64,000 nucleotides of DNA from NCBI GenBank assembly GCA_036555065.1, contig DATBLZ010000040.1:119-64118 (forward strand), written 5' to 3'. The notes beneath the pieces are model-generated. The model did no database searches. It had not been told where the DNA came from and saw only the letters and a program-made list of their open reading frames with translations. The position numbers were made by a program, and so were the translations under genes. This DNA comes from Gammaproteobacteria bacterium (lineage in GTDB: Bacteria > Pseudomonadota > Gammaproteobacteria > Steroidobacterales > Rariloculaceae). How positions within the stretch are numbered: position 1 is the stretch's first letter; each line of letters begins with the position of its first letter. Of the stretch, positions 32,379 through 40,914 are shown in pieces.

Positions 32379-33290
32379 TTGAAGCAACGCACGCTTAGGG
32401 ATTCGATTCGCGCGACGGGGATTGGCCTGCATAGCGGCGCCAAGGTCTACATGACGTTGCGGCCGGCGCCCGCGAATACCGGCATCGTGTTTCGACGCCT
32501 CGATTTGCCGGAGCCCGTCGACATACCGGCCGATGCCCTGTCCGTCACGCAGACGACTCTCGGTACGACGCTCGAGCGCGGCGCGGGCAAGGTCGCGACC
32601 GTCGAGCACTTGATGTCGGCGTTCGCCGGATTGGGCATCGACAACGCGTTCATCGACTTGACCGCGCCCGAGGTGCCGATCATGGATGGCAGCGCGGCGC
32701 CGTTCGTGTTCTTGCTGCAATCGGCCGGTATCGAGGAGCAGAACGCGGCAAAGCGTTTCATTCGGATCGTTCGACCCGTCGTCGTAGAAGAAGGTGACAA
32801 GTGGGCGCGCCTCACGCCGCATGATGGCTTCCGCGTCAACTTCGAGATCGATTTCGATCACCCCGTGCTGCGCAAGCACCGCCAGAAGGCAAGTCTGGAA
32901 TTTTCGACGACGGCGTTTCTCAAAGAGATTAGCCGCGCGCGGACGTTCGGGTTTCTGCGCGACGTTGAGACGCTGCGTTCCCACGATCTCGCGCTCGGCG
33001 GCAGCATGGACAACGCAATCGTCATGGACGAGTACCGCGTGCTCAACGAAGACGGCTTGCGATTCCGCGACGAGTTCGTGCGCCACAAGGTGCTCGATGC
33101 CGTGGGCGACTTATATCTGCTCGGCTGCTGTCTCATCGGCGAGTTTACGGGTCACAAGTCCGGTCATCGCCTCAACAACCTGCTGCTGCGCGCGCTGCTC
33201 CGCGAGCCTGCGACGCACGAGGAAGTCGTGTTCGACGAAGAGCGGCGTTCCCCGGTTTCCTATCAGCTCGCCCCGGGTCTCCCGGATTAG
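32379..33290 (+). CDS. lpxC: UDP-3-O-acyl-N-acetylglucosamine deacetylase LpxC
   Basis: 303-aa ORF with an apparent TTG start. [39 protein letters not shown] matches the LpxC N-terminus. [10 protein letters not shown] motif present. Confidence 0.96.
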
Positions 33291-33682
33291 CCTTTGGGCA
33301 CGACGCGCACGTGCACTTCGCCGCGTCCGAGCTCGCGGGCGCGATAGCGTACGCGCGCGGCCCAGGCCGCCGAATCGACACCGAGCACGAGCCTTCCTGC
33401 TGCATCCATGCTCGCGCAGACCACGTGCTCAGCCTCGTCGGCGGCAAGGCGAGACCTGACCTCCGCGACCAACTTGCGCCGCTCCGCGGCCTGGGACAGC
33501 AACGTCGCGATGTCGCCGGATTGCAACACATCGGCCAATGGACGGGGACCTGTGCCCCGGGTGTTTTTTGAGACCGGGTTCAACGTTTTGAGGCTAAAAC
33601 CTTGAGTCTTGGGCTGATTCTGGGCATTCTCATGGCTCTCGATAAAGGGCAAACCGTCCGAAAGGACGGGACGCAAAGCCAC
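33287..33682 (-). CDS. DUF721 (DciA-like) domain protein; start codon uncertain
   Basis: The C-terminal approximately 85 aa ([10 protein letters not shown]...[23 protein letters not shown]) look like DUF721, and the gene occupies the lpxC-DUF721-M23-secA position seen in Pseudomonas. The first approximately 45 codons lie in an AT-richer tract with atypical codons and may not be coding. Confidence 0.55.
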
Positions 33683-33823: not shown

Positions 33824-34744
33824 ATGCAACTAATCCTGCTTTCAAAGCACCGCGGACACCTTGGACAGCTGCGCCTGAGCTCGCGGCGCGCGTGCGCAGC
33901 GCTCGCCGGACTCGCGATCGTAGTCTGTGCGTCGAGCTTCTTCGCCGGGTTCCGTACGGCGAGCGTCTTCGGCGTCGCGAATCCCGAGATCCAAGTCGCG
34001 CAATGGCGCGCCGAGCTCGCGGCGCAAGAGCAAGCCGTCGAGGCCACGCGCCGCGCGTTGCAGCAGAATATCGACGCACTCGCGTTGCGTATCGGCCAGA
34101 TGAATGCACACGTGGTCCGCCTGGACGCGCTGGGCTCGAGGCTCACGCAGATGGCGGACCTTAGTGACGGGGAGTTCGATTTCTCGAGCCCGCCGTCCCT
34201 CGGTGGACCCGAAGAGCCCATCGCCGACGGTGAAGCGATGCAGGTCGGTAGCGTCGTCACTGCGCTCAATACGCTCGACGTCCAGCTCGCCGACCGCGAC
34301 GCGCAGCTCAGCGTGCTCGAGGATTTCCTTCTCAATCGCAAGCTGCGCGACGAGGTACATCCGGAGGGCCGGCCCGTGACCGCCGGCTATGTGTCCTCGC
34401 GTTTCGGTCATCGGACCGATCCCTTCACAGGACGCCGTGCGTTTCACAAGGGAGTCGACTTTGCGGGCCGTGCGGGCGCCGATGTCGTCGCAGTGGCTTC
34501 GGGCGTCGTGATTTGGTCCGGGCCGCGTTACGGATACGGCGAGCTCGTCGAGATCAACCACGGCAACGGCTACGTGACGCGATATGCGCATAACGCCGAC
34601 AATCTCGTGGTGATCGGCGAGACGGTCAAACGCGGTCAGGTCATCGCACGCATGGGCGACACGGGTCGCGCCACCGGGCCGAACCTCCATTTCGAAGTTC
34701 TGCACAACGGCAAAGCCGTCGACCCGCTGATGTACATCCAGTAA
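33824..34744 (+). CDS. M23-family (LytM-domain) peptidoglycan endopeptidase with coiled-coil N-terminal region
   Basis: 306-aa ORF with an N-terminal TM/signal segment and a coiled coil. M23 motifs HKGVDFAG, HGNGYVTRYAH and PNLHFEV. Confidence 0.9.
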   Translation: MQLILLSKHRGHLGQLRLSSRRACAALAGLAIVVCASSFFAGFRTASVFGVANPEIQVAQWRAELAAQEQAVEATRRALQQNIDALALRIGQMNAHVVRLDALGSRLTQMADLSDGEFDFSSPPSLGGPEEPIADGEAMQVGSVVTALNTLDVQLADRDAQLSVLEDFLLNRKLRDEVHPEGRPVTAGYVSSRFGHRTDPFTGRRAFHKGVDFAGRAGADVVAVASGVVIWSGPRYGYGELVEINHGNGYVTRYAHNADNLVVIGETVKRGQVIARMGDTGRATGPNLHFEVLHNGKAVDPLMYIQ

Positions 34745-34847: not shown

Positions 34848-37793
34848 TTGGCGAATCTCCTTACGAATCTTCTTACGGGTGTCTTCGGCAGCCGTAATCA
34901 GCGGCTGCTGCGCCAATACGGCAAATACGTCGCTCAAGCGGGCGCGCTCGCGGCCGCGATGGCCGCGCTCGACGATACGGCGCTCAAGGCGAAGACCGCT
35001 GAGCTCAAGGAGCGCTACGCGGCGCTCGGGACTCTCGAGCCGCTCTTGCCGGAGGCGTTCGCCGTCGTCCGCGAGGCCGCGCGCCGCACGATCCGCATGC
35101 GCCACTTCGACGTGCAGCTCATCGGCGGAATCACGCTGCACGAGGGCAAGATCGCCGAGATGCGCACCGGCGAGGGCAAGACCCTCGTTGCGACTTTGGC
35201 GGCGTACGTCAATGCGTTGACCGGTCAGGGCGTGCACATCGTCACAGTCAACGAGTATCTCGCGCGCCGGGACGCGGAGTGGATGGGTCCGATTTACCGC
35301 TTCCTGGGCCTCGAGGTCGGCGTCATCAAGAGCGGCCAATCGGTCGACGAGAAACGCGCTGCATATGCGGCCGATATCACCTACGGCACCAACAACGAAT
35401 TCGGCTTCGATTACCTGCGCGACAATCTCGCATTCCGCACGCAGGACCGCGTCCAGCGGTCGCTCAACTTCGCGATCGTCGACGAAGTCGATTCGATATT
35501 GATCGACGAGGCCCGTACGCCGCTCATCATTTCCGGCCGCTCGGAGGAGAGCACCGAGCTCTACGTGCGGATCAACAAGTTGATTCCGAGCCTCAAGAAG
35601 CACGACGCCCCATCGGGGCCTGCGAACGAGGCCATTGAAGCGAATCAAATCGAGCTGCTCGATCGTAAGGGAAAGTCGCTCGGCACGATGTCGACCGACG
35701 ACGCGCTCGCAAAAGCGCGCGCGGAGGGGTTACATCTGGTCCAGACTGACGCGGGCGCACGGCCCGTCAAATGTCAGCTCTTCATTCCGGGCGACTACAC
35801 GGTCGACGAGAAATCGAAGCAAGCCCACCTCACCGAGGAGGGGCACGAGAACGTCGAGGGGCTGCTCACGAAGGCCGGGATCCTCGCGGCCGGCGAGAGT
35901 CTATACGATGCCGCGAACATCCGCTTGATGCACCATGTGAACGCGGCGCTGCGTGCACATGCGCTCTTCAGACGCGAGGTCGAATACATCATCGCGAACG
36001 GCGAGGTCGTCATCGTCGATGAGTTTACGGGCCGCACGATGCCGGGCCGCCGATGGTCGGACGGCCTCCACCAGGCGATCGAGGCCAAGGAAGGCGTGCA
36101 TGTCAAGGAGGAGAACCAAACCGTCGCCTCGATCACCTTTCAAAACTACTTCCGACTGTACAAAAAGCTCGCGGGCATGACGGGCACGGCCGATACCGAG
36201 GCCTACGAATTCCAGCAGATCTACGGCCTCGAGGTCGTCGTCATTCCGACCCACAAGACGATGATTCGCGCGGACGCGCCCGATCTCGTGTACTTGACGC
36301 AAGACGACAAATTCGAGGCGATTCTCGAAGACATCGTGGACTGCCAGAAGCGCGAGCAGCCCGTGCTCGTCGGCACGACGTCGATCGAGACGTCGGAGTT
36401 TCTGTCGGGCCTGCTCAAGGAGCGCAAGGTCAAGCACCAGGTGTTGAACGCCAAGTACCACGAGCAGGAGGCGCAGATCGTCGCGGAAGCGGGCCGTCCG
36501 GGCACGGTGACCATCGCGACGAACATGGCGGGCCGCGGCACCGACATCGTGCTCGGCGGCAATCTCGAGGCCGAGCGCGCGGCGCTGCGGGCCGCCGGCC
36601 CCACCGACGCTGCGGCGGAAAAAGCTCTCGAGGACGATTGGCAGCGGCGCCACGACCAGGTCATCGCCGTCGGTGGATTGCATATCGTCGGCACCGAACG
36701 GCACGAGTCGCGGCGCATCGACAATCAGCTTCGCGGCCGATCGGGCAGACAAGGCGACCCCGGCTCGAGCCGCTTCTACCTCGCGATGGAAGACAACCTC
36801 ATGCGGATCTTCGGCAACCCCGAGAACACGAAGCGGTTGCTAACGCGCGCGGGCATGAAACGCGGTGAGGCCATCGAAAGCAAGCTTCTGACGCGCCAGA
36901 TCGAGCGCGCGCAACGCAAAGTCGAGGCGCACAACTTCGACATTCGCAAGCAGCTGCTCGAATACGACGACGTTGCGAATGCGCAGCGCAAGGTCGTATA
37001 CCAACAGCGCTCGGAGCTCATGGAGGAAGAGGACATCGGCGAGGCCATCAAGGCGATTCGTCGCGAGGTCGTCGATGCGGTCATCTCCGAGTACGTGCCC
37101 GCGGACAGCGCCGAGGAGCTGTGGGACAAAGAGAATCTCACGAAGGCCTTGGAGCGAGAATTCGCGCTGCACGTCGATGTCGCCAAGCTCCTCGAGGACG
37201 ACCAAACACTCGATGAGCGCGGACTGCGCAAGCTCGTGCTCGAAAGAATCGAGCAAACCTACGAGGCCAAAGAGAGCGCCGTCGGCCCGCGCGTAATGCG
37301 CGAGCTCGAGAAGCAGATCATGCTGCGGCAGCTCGATGCGCATTGGAAGGAGCACATCGCAGCGCTCGACTATCTGCGGCAGGGCATCCACTTACGCGGA
37401 TATGCGCAGCGCAACCCGAAGCAGGAATACAAACGCGAAGCGTTCGAGATGTTCAGCGCGCTGCTCGACCGCGTTAAGCACGAGACCATCACGATTCTCG
37501 CTCGCATCCAGATCCGGCGGCCCGAAGATGTCGGCGCCGTGGAGCCGCCTGCCCCCGATCCGCGCAAGCTCCAGTTTCAGCATGCGGCCGCACCGTCGTT
37601 GACCGCTGCCGCGCTCGCACCGCCGACCGGCGCCGATGGCGCGAGCGCGCCGCTGCCTCGACCGCGAGCCGCTGCACAGCGGCCGGAGCCGATCACGCCC
37701 TTCGTGCGCGAGCAGCCGAAAGTCGGACGCAATCAGCCGTGTCCGTGTGGATCCGGCAAAAAGTACAAGCAGTGCCACGGGCGGCTCAGCTAG
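34848..37793 (+). CDS. secA: Preprotein translocase ATPase SecA (981 aa, with extra module in the PPXD)
   Basis: TTG start is forced by an in-frame TGA at 34845, with an AGGGA Shine-Dalgarno 7 nt upstream. Motifs [46 protein letters not shown] and the C-terminal zinc finger [14 protein letters not shown]. Confidence 0.98.
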
Positions 37794-37807
37794 ACCCGAT
37801 TCACGTC

Positions 37808-38191
37808 ATGGTCGCGATCATCCGCGACGCCAAGGGTCGGGTTTTGCTCAGCCAACGCGTGCCCGGAGCGCACATGGCGGGCGCCTGGGAATTTCCGGGC
37901 GGCAAAAAAGAGCCCGACGAGACTCGTTTCGACGCGCTCGAGCGCGAGCTCACCGAGGAGCTCGGCATCGCCGTCGTCGCGGCGGCGCCCTTCATCGAGA
38001 TCGCGCATGCTTACCCGGATCGAAACGTGCACCTCGACGTCTGGGTCGTCACGGATTATGCGCGAGAGCCTCTGGCCAGGGAGGGGCAGAGGCTGCACTG
38101 GGCGACCGTGGCGGAGCTCGAGGACTCGGGCCTGCTCGAGGCCGACCGGCCGATCGTGGCCGCCCTGCGTGCACTTGCTGAGCCCTGCTAA
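37808..38191 (+). CDS. mutT: 8-oxo-dGTP diphosphatase MutT (Nudix)
   Basis: ATG at 37808. Nudix box GGKKEPDETRFDALERELTEELG. Aligns along its length with E. coli MutT. Conserved secA-mutT adjacency. Confidence 0.85.
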   Translation: MVAIIRDAKGRVLLSQRVPGAHMAGAWEFPGGKKEPDETRFDALERELTEELGIAVVAAAPFIEIAHAYPDRNVHLDVWVVTDYAREPLAREGQRLHWATVAELEDSGLLEADRPIVAALRALAEPC

Positions 38192-38700: not shown

Positions 38701-40914
38701 ATGAGCGTTAGACTGCATTCGATTGTCGCCCTCGCTGCGCTGACGATCATGGCCGGCACGGAAGTCGGTTTCGCGCAATCGTCGCCGACAGTGCCACAGA
38801 TCGTCCGCGATCGCATCGCATCCTCCGGGCGAACGCGCGTCATCGTCGAGCTTGCGGCGACGAGCCTTGCGCCGGACGGGCGCCGGTCGGCCGAGCAGAT
38901 GCGCCGGCAACGGACGGAAATCGCCGCGCAACGCAGCCGCCTGCGCGCGCGGCTCGGACAAGGCGCCCATCGCTTCGTTCACGAATTCGCGAATGTGCCG
39001 TTCGTCGCACTCGAGATCGACGCGTCCTCGCTTGCCGAATTGGAAGCCGCAGGATCACCCGCGGTCCGGGTTTTCGAGGATCGGCTCTTGGCGCCGACGC
39101 TGGCTCAGAGCGTCCCACTCATAGAGGCAGATCTCGCGCATCAAATCGGGCTCAACGGTAGCGGCAACGTCGTCGCGGTCGTGGATTCGGGCGTGGACCG
39201 GACGCATCCGTTTCTCGCGCCGCGCGTGGTCGCAGAAGCTTGCTTTGCGAGTGCCGAATCCGGCGACGGCGGCGATTGCCCGAACGGGCAAGCCACGGAG
39301 ATCGGTCCCGGCGCGGCCGAGAGTTGCGCGTTCGCGCCCTTGGCCTGCGGTCATGGAACCCACGTCGCCGGCATTGCCGCGGGGTCGGGACCCGAGTTTT
39401 CCGGCGTCGCCCCGAACGCGAGCCTCATCGCCGTGCAGGTTTTTCATGCATCCATGCAGTGCTTCTTCTTGCTCGAGGAGTTTCCCTGCCCACGCGCGTA
39501 CGAGAGCGACATCGTCGCCGGCTTGGAATACGTGATGAGCCTGCGCAACCAATTCAACATCGCCGCGGTCAACATGAGCCTTGGGGGAACGGCATACGAC
39601 AGCGCCTGCGATGCTGAAAGCCCGCTCTTCTCAGCCATCATCAACAATCTGAAATCGGTCGGCATCGCGACGATCGCGGCATCGGGCAACGATGGGCTCA
39701 CGGACGGCATCGCCGAACCCGCATGCATCGCCGCGGCGATCAGCGTCGGCGCCACGACCGACGATGACGAAGTCGCGTGGTTTTCGAACGCGTCAGCGGA
39801 CCTCGATCTGCTCGCGCCGGGAACCGGCATCAACTCATCGATGCCGGGCGGAGGTTTCGAGGAGCTCGACGGGACTTCGATGGCTGCGCCACACGTCGCC
39901 GGCGCGTGGGCGATATACAAGCAAGCCCATCCGGGCGCAACCGTCGACGAGGCGCTCGCGAGCTTCGTGAGCACCGGTACGCCGATCGCCGACTCGCGCG
40001 GCGGACCGACCAAGCCGCGGATCCGGGTCGGTGCTGCCGTCGGCATCGAGTCGCCCGTGCCGGTGATCGACTCGATCTCGCCGTCGACGGTGAACGCGTT
40101 TGCATCGGCCTTCACGCTGCGCGTCAACGGCAGCGGATTCATCGGCTCGTCCAAAGTCAGCTTGAACGGCCAGCCGCAGCGTACGACCTTCGTCAATGAC
40201 ACGACGTTGACCGTGACGATCGCGAGCGGGCAGCTTCCCGCGTCCGCAGCCGCAGTTACGGTCGCGGTGTCGACGCCTCCGCCCGGCGGCGGAACGTCGA
40301 ACGCCGCGACACTCAACGTCGTCGTCCCGGCGCTTGAGGTGAGTTCGACGATGGTCGATGCGGGCGATCCCGTCACGTTGACCCTCGTCGACGCGCCCGG
40401 CGGGGCAGAAGACTGGGTCGCGGTCTCGGCGGTCGGCAGCGCGAATACGAGCTACGTGACGTTCGTTGCTTTCGCGAACGCGCCGTCGGGGAGTTGGACG
40501 GTCAACATGCCGCAGACGCCCGGGACCTACGAGTTCCGGCTGTACCTGGACTATGGCTATGGCATCGCGGCCGTGAGCGCGCCGGTGGTGGTGGCGGCCA
40601 CCGAGCCTGAGCCTGAGCCTGAGCCCGAGCCTGCGCCGGTGGCGACGCTGACGGTGAGCACGACGACCGTTGCACCGGGTGCGCCGGTGACGGTGGCGCT
40701 CGCGAATGCGCCGGGCAACCCGACGGACTGGCTGGGGGTCTCGGCGGTCGGCAGCGCGAATACGAGCTACGTGGCGTTCGTTGCCTTCGCGAATGTGGCG
40801 TCGGGGAGTTGGACGGTCAACATGCCGCAGACGCCCGGGACCTACGAGTTCCGGCTGTACCTGGACTATGGCTATGGCATCGCGGCCGTGAGCGCGCCCG
40901 TGGTAGTCCAGTGA
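38701..40914 (+). CDS. Secreted subtilisin-like (S8) serine protease with prodomain, IPT/TIG-like domain and two tandem C-terminal beta-rich domains
   Basis: 737-aa ORF with a signal peptide. Catalytic Asp (VAVVDSGVD), His (HGTHVAGIAAG) and Ser (GTSMAAPHVAGA). An IPT-like segment (ISPSTVNAF...LTVTIASGQL), then a approximately 95-aa domain present twice, separated by a (EP)5 linker. Confidence 0.9.
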   Translation: MSVRLHSIVALAALTIMAGTEVGFAQSSPTVPQIVRDRIASSGRTRVIVELAATSLAPDGRRSAEQMRRQRTEIAAQRSRLRARLGQGAHRFVHEFANVPFVALEIDASSLAELEAAGSPAVRVFEDRLLAPTLAQSVPLIEADLAHQIGLNGSGNVVAVVDSGVDRTHPFLAPRVVAEACFASAESGDGGDCPNGQATEIGPGAAESCAFAPLACGHGTHVAGIAAGSGPEFSGVAPNASLIAVQVFHASMQCFFLLEEFPCPRAYESDIVAGLEYVMSLRNQFNIAAVNMSLGGTAYDSACDAESPLFSAIINNLKSVGIATIAASGNDGLTDGIAEPACIAAAISVGATTDDDEVAWFSNASADLDLLAPGTGINSSMPGGGFEELDGTSMAAPHVAGAWAIYKQAHPGATVDEALASFVSTGTPIADSRGGPTKPRIRVGAAVGIESPVPVIDSISPSTVNAFASAFTLRVNGSGFIGSSKVSLNGQPQRTTFVNDTTLTVTIASGQLPASAAAVTVAVSTPPPGGGTSNAATLNVVVPALEVSSTMVDAGDPVTLTLVDAPGGAEDWVAVSAVGSANTSYVTFVAFANAPSGSWTVNMPQTPGTYEFRLYLDYGYGIAAVSAPVVVAATEPEPEPEPEPAPVATLTVSTTTVAPGAPVTVALANAPGNPTDWLGVSAVGSANTSYVAFVAFANVASGSWTVNMPQTPGTYEFRLYLDYGYGIAAVSAPVVVQ
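40423..40583 (+). repeat. Copy 1 of a 161-bp near-identical intragenic direct repeat in the S8 protease gene
   Basis: GTCTCGGCGGTCGGCAGCGCGAATACGAGCTACGTG...GGCATCGCGGCCGTGAGCGCGCC recurs 315 bp downstream with only about 4 substitutions. Confidence 0.95.
40738..40898 (+). repeat. Copy 2 of the 161-bp intragenic direct repeat
   Basis: Same sequence as 40423-40583, offset by exactly 315 bp (105 codons). Confidence 0.95.

Follow-up and report, generated by a model that had tools for sequence, protein, structure and literature searches.

Few bacterial machines are as conserved or as intensively studied as SecA, whose preprotein-crosslinking domain (PPXD) is the moving jaw of the substrate clamp. 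Large additions to SecA have been described in thermophiles. The abstract of Khadka, Persaud and Gupta (2019, PMC7023208) describes signature inserts of 50 aa in Thermotogales and Aquificales and of 76 aa in Thermales, which are clade-restricted and exposed on the surface of an otherwise conserved SecA, and whose function was inferred computationally only. They are the nearest precedent for the insert analysed here, which is likewise large, clade-restricted and surface-exposed. This insert is found in a window (the whole stretch of DNA that was analysed) of 64,000 nucleotides from contig DATBLZ010000040.1 of the assembly GCA_036555065.1, Gammaproteobacteria bacterium. The secA gene in the window, encoding the housekeeping preprotein translocase ATPase of 981 aa, runs from 34848 to 37793 on the + strand. 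The thermophile inserts are located in the ATPase domain of SecAs from unrelated phyla, and the same abstract mentions no homology to another domain family. In contrast, the window insert is located in the PPXD of a gammaproteobacterial SecA and is almost certainly a complete IF3_N domain, homologous to the N-terminal domain (NTD) of initiation factor IF3 and with its fold.

The insert occupies a PPXD loop that connects a helix ending in IPxLK with the hairpin GDYxVDEK. Both flanks of the canonical SecA are fully conserved in the window protein, and the site is the same; the difference is that a folded domain of 67 residues replaces a loop of 4-31 residues. The whole expanded loop, residues 251-317 (35598-35798, + strand), lies between IPSLK and TVDEK, starting after K250 and stopping before T318. 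The same loop has about 16 residues in E. coli SecA. In an alignment of 80 SecAs from GTDB genomes, mostly distant, among the matches listed, it has 4-31 residues in 78 other SecAs, with modes at 11 and 16, and L001 is the only insert carrier. The insertion into the PPXD that had been proposed in the first-pass annotation is borne out by this comparison, although its end had been put at 35792, two codons short. In the nearest insert-free relatives the loop has 11 residues and reads LKPQLEEDG followed by PGDY. Since PGDY occurs in these insert-free SecAs and also follows the insert in the window protein, the segment gained on balance lies between G257 and the native PGDY and has 56 residues, 258-313 (35619-35786, + strand), which are the globular IF3_N core.

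The identity of the insert was established by searches in both directions. The Pfam profile PF05198 (IF3_N) matches residues 260-325 (35625-35822, + strand; profile positions 2-67 of 70). The score is 47.8 bits when the whole protein is searched and rises to 53 bits for the excised segment, the gathering cutoff being 26.9. The last ten or so residues of the match, PGDYTVDEK, are native SecA, occur in insert-free SecAs as well, and resemble the DYGKFxYEK of IF3. An alignment to E. coli IF3 without gaps has 19 identities in 59 positions (32%), and 20,000 shuffles averaged 4.05 identities and never exceeded 14, so that the residue-for-residue match reported earlier is correct and far above chance. 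Conversely, 50 insert sequences were combined into a profile that was run against all PDB chain sequences. All 10 of its matches at E <= 0.01 are bacterial or mitochondrial IF3 (E. coli IF3, 3.2e-12; 1TIF, 2e-10; mitochondrial IF3, about 1e-2), and the remaining three matches are unrelated, with E >= 0.06. In an exhaustive phmmer search, both of the inspected IF3-length matches that rank below the SecA fragments of the same group are true IF3.

The predicted structure agrees with the profiles. AlphaFold gives the insert a strand-strand-helix-strand-strand arrangement (strands 267-271 and 277-282, helix 283-292, strands 296-301 and 307-312), with a predicted local distance difference test (pLDDT) of 83-88 for the core alone and 83-91 in the full-length model. 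The ten best PDB matches found by Foldseek are all IF3 NTDs, and 6o6d superimposes with a root-mean-square deviation of 1.1 Å over 48 columns. The IF3 NTD (PF05198; PDB 1TIF and 6O6D; approximately residues 11-70 of E. coli IF3) has the same fold and strand order. Unlike IF3, the domain is embedded in another protein and lacks the linker helix and IF3_C: Pfam does not match IF3_C anywhere in the SecA, and the linker is absent too. The infC equivalog TIGR00168 scores 33.4 against a cutoff of 60 and covers model positions 7-74 only; this whole-protein model stays under its cutoff because the insert is without the linker and IF3_C. The profile search and the structure prediction suggested in the first-pass annotation thus gave an IF3_N match above the gathering cutoff, and a confident fold whose top ten neighbours are IF3 N-domains. 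The insert is neither disordered nor a widespread loop that was already known. One of the hallmarks put forward, the cysteine of the P..C motif, does not hold across the family, as position 309 is A in 56% of the carriers and C in 40%.

That the whole arrangement is an artefact, whether of a fortuitous resemblance, a frameshift or chimerism in the assembly, has a negligible probability. The frame is unbroken, assemblies from NCBI, JGI, ENA and Logan contribute at least 169 clusters with this architecture, the carriers include contigs of 0.5-5.4 Mb, and significance is reached in both search directions. Five long repeat proteins (P0126, P0127, P0131, P0171 and P0173) that appeared as possible IF3_N relatives were rejected as repeat-inflated matches. 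They score E = 1e-12 to 1e-4 against the 75-residue insert through many short stretches. The set includes P0126 (1255 aa) and P0127 (2360 aa), and the repeats seen in it are 12 DUF5649 repeats and Ig-like, cadherin-like and CshA arrays.

The carriers found all belong to one group of bacteria. The precomputed annotation lists PF05198 for every one of the 120 closest SecA relatives, the most distant of which is 74% identical, and a second search added a further 49 carrier clusters, bringing the total to at least 169 protein clusters. A metagenome scan yielded 68 loci with the insert. The loop is 67 aa long in 114 of the 120 relatives (95%), whose identity to the window reference is 58% in the insert and 80% in the SecA core. 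A word-indexed search with the 90-aa insert gave a single fragment, and a full-length query was needed to reveal the group. In a library of 50% representatives the insert was seen in SecA fragments only, which makes that library unusable for counting carriers; the full-length carriers are presumably represented there by insert-free SecAs.

The carriers belong to an uncultured soil and marine gammaproteobacterial group that adjoins the Steroidobacteraceae, which answers the earlier question of which clade of orthologues carries the insert. When the insert columns are left out, neighbour joining of the SecA core sets the entire assemblage apart from the sampled metagenome-assembled genomes of Steroidobacteraceae in 194 of 200 bootstrap replicates. 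Judged from the sample names, the carriers come from several kinds of habitat. The group is compositionally very wide, because two low-GC carriers, L135 (CETH01162650.1) and L136 (CEUA01029210.1), in which the G+C content at third codon positions (GC3) of secA is 0.22 as compared with 0.83 in the window, keep the full insert. One SecA positive for PF05198, P0273, has 1037 aa and is about 55 residues longer than the other carriers. The architecture is already tagged with PF05198 by automated Pfam annotation, yet, as far as could be found, it has apparently not been discussed in the literature. Full-text literature searches turned up no paper that describes a SecA with an IF3-like module, in agreement with the earlier remark that none was known.

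Codon usage bears on the age of the insert. In the window genome the insert has a GC3 of 0.73, the rest of the gene 0.83 (one-sided p = 0.028), and a value of 0.82 is expected from the amino-acid composition of the insert. This dip had been taken as a sign of a later acquisition. It is real in the window genome but vanishes across 43 full-length relatives, in which the GC3 is 0.813 for the insert and 0.821 for the core and the insert is the lower of the two in 23 of the 43. The dip is noise or a local effect. From GC3 0.22 to 0.95 the insert tracks its host gene, and because its composition follows that of the host gene across the group, the capture is, on codon composition, judged to be old and fully ameliorated.

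Selection on the insert was estimated as the ratio of nonsynonymous to synonymous substitution rates (dN/dS) by the Nei-Gojobori method, summed over 15 taxon-disjoint pairs with a core dS of 0.17-0.78. For the insert (residues 258-313) the ratio is 0.195, with a bootstrap interval of 0.152-0.249 that is somewhat optimistic, as some pairs share close relatives. The SecA core has a ratio of 0.121, the PPXD outside the insert 0.078, the wing/scaffold 0.175 and the C-terminal linker 0.233. These ratios clearly point to purifying selection on the insert, with a constraint weaker than that on the motor; the earlier suggestion to look for such selection is answered by a ratio well below 1.

Within the assemblage the insert is not present in every lineage, and the trees that bear on its history are of a single gene, were built by neighbour joining from the SecA core without the insert columns, and have short internal branches. 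The L002 lineage, four clusters with 86-100% mutual identity, has a short loop and no PF05198. Together with the group of P0247 it clusters with the crown carriers in 191 of 200 bootstrap replicates, and quartet site patterns also favour the pairing of L002 with the crown (16.3 against 12.8 informative sites; 292 of 360 quartets). The divergent carriers L148, L143 and L140 cluster with other insert-free sequences in 123 of 200 replicates, and monophyly of all carriers was recovered in none of the 200. In P0247 and P0250, SecAs of 933-934 aa, the loop between LK and GDF has 24 residues and reads QQIVAPGTRDNPLTGEQVEILQ followed by AGDF. This loop can be aligned with insert positions 1 to 22, and its position-specific score is far above that of shuffles (P <= 0.0004); as the alignment was optimised beforehand, this value is supportive and is not a proof. 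A plain hidden Markov model search detected no remnant of the insert in these two proteins. The loop is probably a 22-residue remnant left by an internal deletion of 41 residues.

These data are most simply read as one capture long ago, after which the insert was lost two to four times. Whatever its history, the insert looks dispensable for the core function of SecA, because nested lineages are without it and one of them has the probable remnant. A different history is on the unlikely side, though a share of the data fits it: the patchy distribution would then stem from homologous recombination that carried a secA segment with the insert laterally between lineages, or from two captures independent of each other. 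Carriers were never monophyletic in the bootstrap, the L002 loop (PQLEEDG followed by PGDY) looks ancestral and not like a deletion derivative of a carrier loop, and the L148 insert is as near to IF3s (38% identity) as to crown inserts (32%). However, the tree behind the first of these points has the limits given above. Both carrier groups share an identical insertion point and length, the derived VKCQL motif is common to L143, L140 and the crown carriers, and the probable remnant in P0247 and P0250 shows that loss occurs.

Three further observations concern the sequences of this part of the tree. L002 (JAHEKG010000017.1, 6001-8781), which groups with P0243-P0245, has a seemingly ancestral type of loop within the crown grouping, which could mean allelic replacement by recombination and not a simple deletion. 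Its NCBI label 'Rhodospirillales' looks wrong, since its SecA is 78% identical to gammaproteobacterial SecAs. L148 (Ga0316195_10000310) has the most IF3-like insert and keeps the DLVE, PNA and PVCR motifs, including the arginine equivalent to R66 of IF3. Residue 231 (35538-35540) opens the PPXD helix that runs up to the insert. Of 40 crown carriers, 39 have Arg or Lys at this position, whereas basal carriers and all non-carriers have Pro. It was considered as a position coupled to the insert and rejected: the basal carriers keep the Pro, and R231 is a marker of the crown clade only.

The surface that IF3 uses for its function has been rewritten. In IF3, residues R25, Q33 and R66 touch the elbow of the initiator tRNA; R25 is invariant, and mutation of these residues reduces initiation fidelity and fitness (PMC9723500). 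A column comparison of 159 insert sequences with 102 IF3-type N-domains was used to follow these positions. The fold core, with its hydrophobic residues and its structural glycines and alanines, is common to both families and comprises N260, I263, V268, L270, G275, L278, G279, A286, A290, G294, L297 and P306. The tRNA-elbow residues are not kept in the insert, where they correspond to E269, S277 and Q310. Codon 269 (35652-35654, + strand) corresponds to R25 of E. coli IF3; R has a frequency of 0.70 in IF3, and E has 0.83 in the insert family. At codon 277 (35676-35678, + strand), Q33 of E. coli IF3 has given way to S (0.71), and at codon 310 (35775-35777, + strand) R66, which is K or R in IF3 (0.93), has given way to Q (0.85). 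Two further positions have also changed: codon 264 (35637-35639, + strand) corresponds to R20, with R or K in IF3 (0.74) and E in the insert family (0.93), and codon 296 (35733-35735, + strand) corresponds to D52, with D in IF3 (0.93) and H in the insert family (0.96). The replaced positions are strongly conserved in the carriers, which suggests that a conserved surface of a new kind has formed and not that the domain is decaying. The mean net charge of the insert is about -3.5.

These replacements bear directly on the proposal that a ribosome-associated fold was grafted onto the substrate clamp. In its general form, the grafted IF3_N would associate with the ribosome, provide SecA with an additional grip on ribosomes, tRNA or RNA, and couple export to translation. 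The domain does derive from a ribosome-binding factor, and SecA itself binds ribosomes and nascent chains (PMC6692507, PMC6620043). Moreover, the domain is conserved by its dN/dS, and the most conservative carrier, L148, retains R at the R66 site as well as the DLVE, PNA and PVCR motifs. The proposal is nevertheless improbable. R25 is replaced by E, Q33 by S and R66 by Q, in addition to the replacement of R20 by E; the insert is net acidic; and the linker and C-domain of IF3, the source of most of its 30S contacts, are absent. The IF3 NTD is located on the platform of the 30S subunit (PMC5037330), whereas SecA contacts uL23 at the tunnel exit of the 50S subunit by its N-terminus and helical linker domain, a contact that is unimpaired by deletion of the PPXD (PMC6692507).

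Binding of tRNA or of the 30S subunit in the manner of IF3 is unlikely for the insert, because the elbow contacts are replaced and the insert is acidic. A weaker form of the idea, in which the captured domain, despite the lost tRNA contacts, would give SecA a new contact with the translation machinery (the ribosome, the nascent chain or mRNA), is very improbable as well. If it were true, export would be linked to translation throughout an entire group of bacteria by a surface that is absent from the SecAs studied so far. The idea of docking on the ribosome is therefore opposed both by the replaced elbow residues and by the separation of the IF3 site on the 30S subunit from the SecA site at uL23 of the 50S subunit. 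From the overall reading in the first-pass annotation, the IF3_N homology and fold and the undescribed status of the architecture are retained, whereas the late acquisition and the link to the ribosome are not.

The best joint explanation of what is observed, namely the identity, fold, site and distribution of the domain, the selection on it and the loss of the IF3 contact residues, is probably that a housekeeping SecA captured an IF3_N domain, which has been kept but is removable and has been reused as an accessory surface unrelated to IF3 function. The domain would have been captured from an infC-type gene in the ancestor of the group adjoining the Steroidobacteraceae and would fold independently in a short surface loop of the PPXD. 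Most lineages appear to have retained it under purifying selection and a few to have deleted or truncated it, as an accessory and not a core element. With the arginines and the glutamine that hold the elbow in IF3 replaced, the corresponding face has become a conserved acidic or neutral one, formed by E264, E269, S277 and Q310 together with H296. On the mobile PPXD, the fold may now serve as a rigid knob with a negative charge. Such a knob could offer a new surface for protein-protein or intramolecular contacts and so tune the movement of the clamp or the capture of a basic partner. Candidates for this partner, named by inference only, are the n-regions of signal peptides, the cytoplasmic loops of SecY and a chaperone. 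In this specific functional form, a reused rigid acidic accessory domain on the PPXD that contacts a basic partner or another SecA domain, the proposal is tentative, and its chance is put at somewhat below even.

Several points weigh against the functional part of the proposal. The predicted template modelling score (pTM) of the full-length AlphaFold model is 0.37, too poor to locate the insert with respect to the other domains of SecA. The shift in charge is modest, since the IF3 NTD core, with a mean charge of -1.9, is itself mildly acidic. The conserved E/E/H/Q residues might stabilise the domain on the PPXD instead of binding a partner. Finally, the repeated loss and a rate of change above that of the SecA core would also fit a passenger that is tolerated.

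The last of these points leads to the main rival of an acidic accessory surface: the insert may be a stable small fold in a permissive PPXD loop that is merely tolerated, with selection acting only for folding and the domain itself functionless. In favour of this, loop length varies naturally between 4 and 31 residues; the insert evolves faster than the core (58% against 80% identity; dN/dS of 0.195 against 0.121); and several nested lineages have lost it or keep it in truncated form. A mere passenger is less easily reconciled with the 67-aa length fixed in 95% of the closest relatives, or with a dN/dS that is far under 1 and near that of the functional wing/scaffold region. Residues outside the fold-core positions of IF3 are near-invariant in the carriers and differ from their IF3 counterparts (E264, 0.93; E269, 0.83; H296, 0.96; Q310, 0.85), and the insert is kept from GC3 0.22 to 0.95 and, by the sample names, in several habitats. 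A passenger is therefore regarded as rather unlikely, and the acidic accessory surface is the reading that is carried forward.

A folded foreign domain in the jaw of the SecA clamp in a large environmental group, which is under selection and yet removable, is a natural experiment on how far the clamp tolerates additions and can be tuned by them. It is also a clear case of domain exaptation, in which the fold of the IF3 N-domain is reused outside IF3 with its RNA-contact face rewritten. On present evidence the understanding of Sec export is unchanged, and none of that evidence links export to translation. The SecAs with the insert, with the remnant and without the insert are 70-78% identical, so that swaps and deletions are easy to design.

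The host gene of the insert has the features of an ordinary secA, as assigned from its open reading frame, Pfam, NCBIfam and synteny. Its frame is intact over 981 codons, with an apparent TTG start at 34848; the N-terminus that begins at this TTG matches homologues from the first residues onward. The NCBI record of the protein is HEY7671261.1. The full set of SecA domains scores above the Pfam cutoffs: PF07517, PF21090, PF01043, PF07516 and PF02810, whose names include SecA_DEAD, SecA_PP_bind (the PPXD), P-loop_SecA, SecA_SW (the wing/scaffold) and the C-terminal SEC-C. Accessory SecA2 proteins are, like the window protein, SecA-family motors that depart from the textbook SecA. Unlike them, the window protein exceeds the cutoffs of the SecA equivalogs (NF009538, 1239.7 against 814; TIGR00963, 1096.3 against 800) and falls below those of all the SecA2 models (TIGR03714, 694 against 930; TIGR04221, 612 against 725; TIGR04397, 860 against 1085; NF012136, 660 against 1100), and its gene lies in the locus at the end of the dcw cluster. 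Because of these equivalog scores and the conserved synteny at the end of the dcw cluster, the gene is identified by its sequence and setting as the primary housekeeping secA, not a paralogue or a secA2.

In the relatives the gene order is ftsZ-lpxC-dciA(-)-M23 peptidase-secA-nudix-zapD-coaE, the insert-bearing secA being found every time in the setting from ftsZ to nudix, and the order in the window (lpxC, dciA, M23, secA, nudix) matches the end of the dcw cluster. Upstream of secA and in conserved synteny with it are lpxC (32379-33290, + strand) and, immediately 5' of secA, the M23 peptidase gene (33824-34744, + strand). Between these two, in antisense and with the same layout in the relatives, lies a dciA-like gene (33287-33682, - strand; PF05258, 28 bits against a cutoff of 24), a member of the family associated with helicase loaders. 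Neither secM nor a secM-like leader is present 5' of secA at the window locus, and no second IF3_N was found within the window. Immediately 3' of secA, also in conserved synteny, is a NUDIX (mutT-like) gene (37739-38191, + strand). Its longest open reading frame, with a GTG at 37739, shares 55 nt (37739-37793) with the end of secA. In one relative the nudix gene begins 5 nt past the end of secA, so the true start in the window is probably further downstream. Beyond it, a subtilase (Peptidase_S8) gene at 38701-40914 (+ strand) encodes a C-terminus with two near-identical repeats of about 95 residues separated by an (EP)n linker, in which the motif ...SAVGSANTSYV.FVAFAN..SGSWTVNMPQTPGTYEFRLYLDYGYGIAAVSAPVVV recurs.

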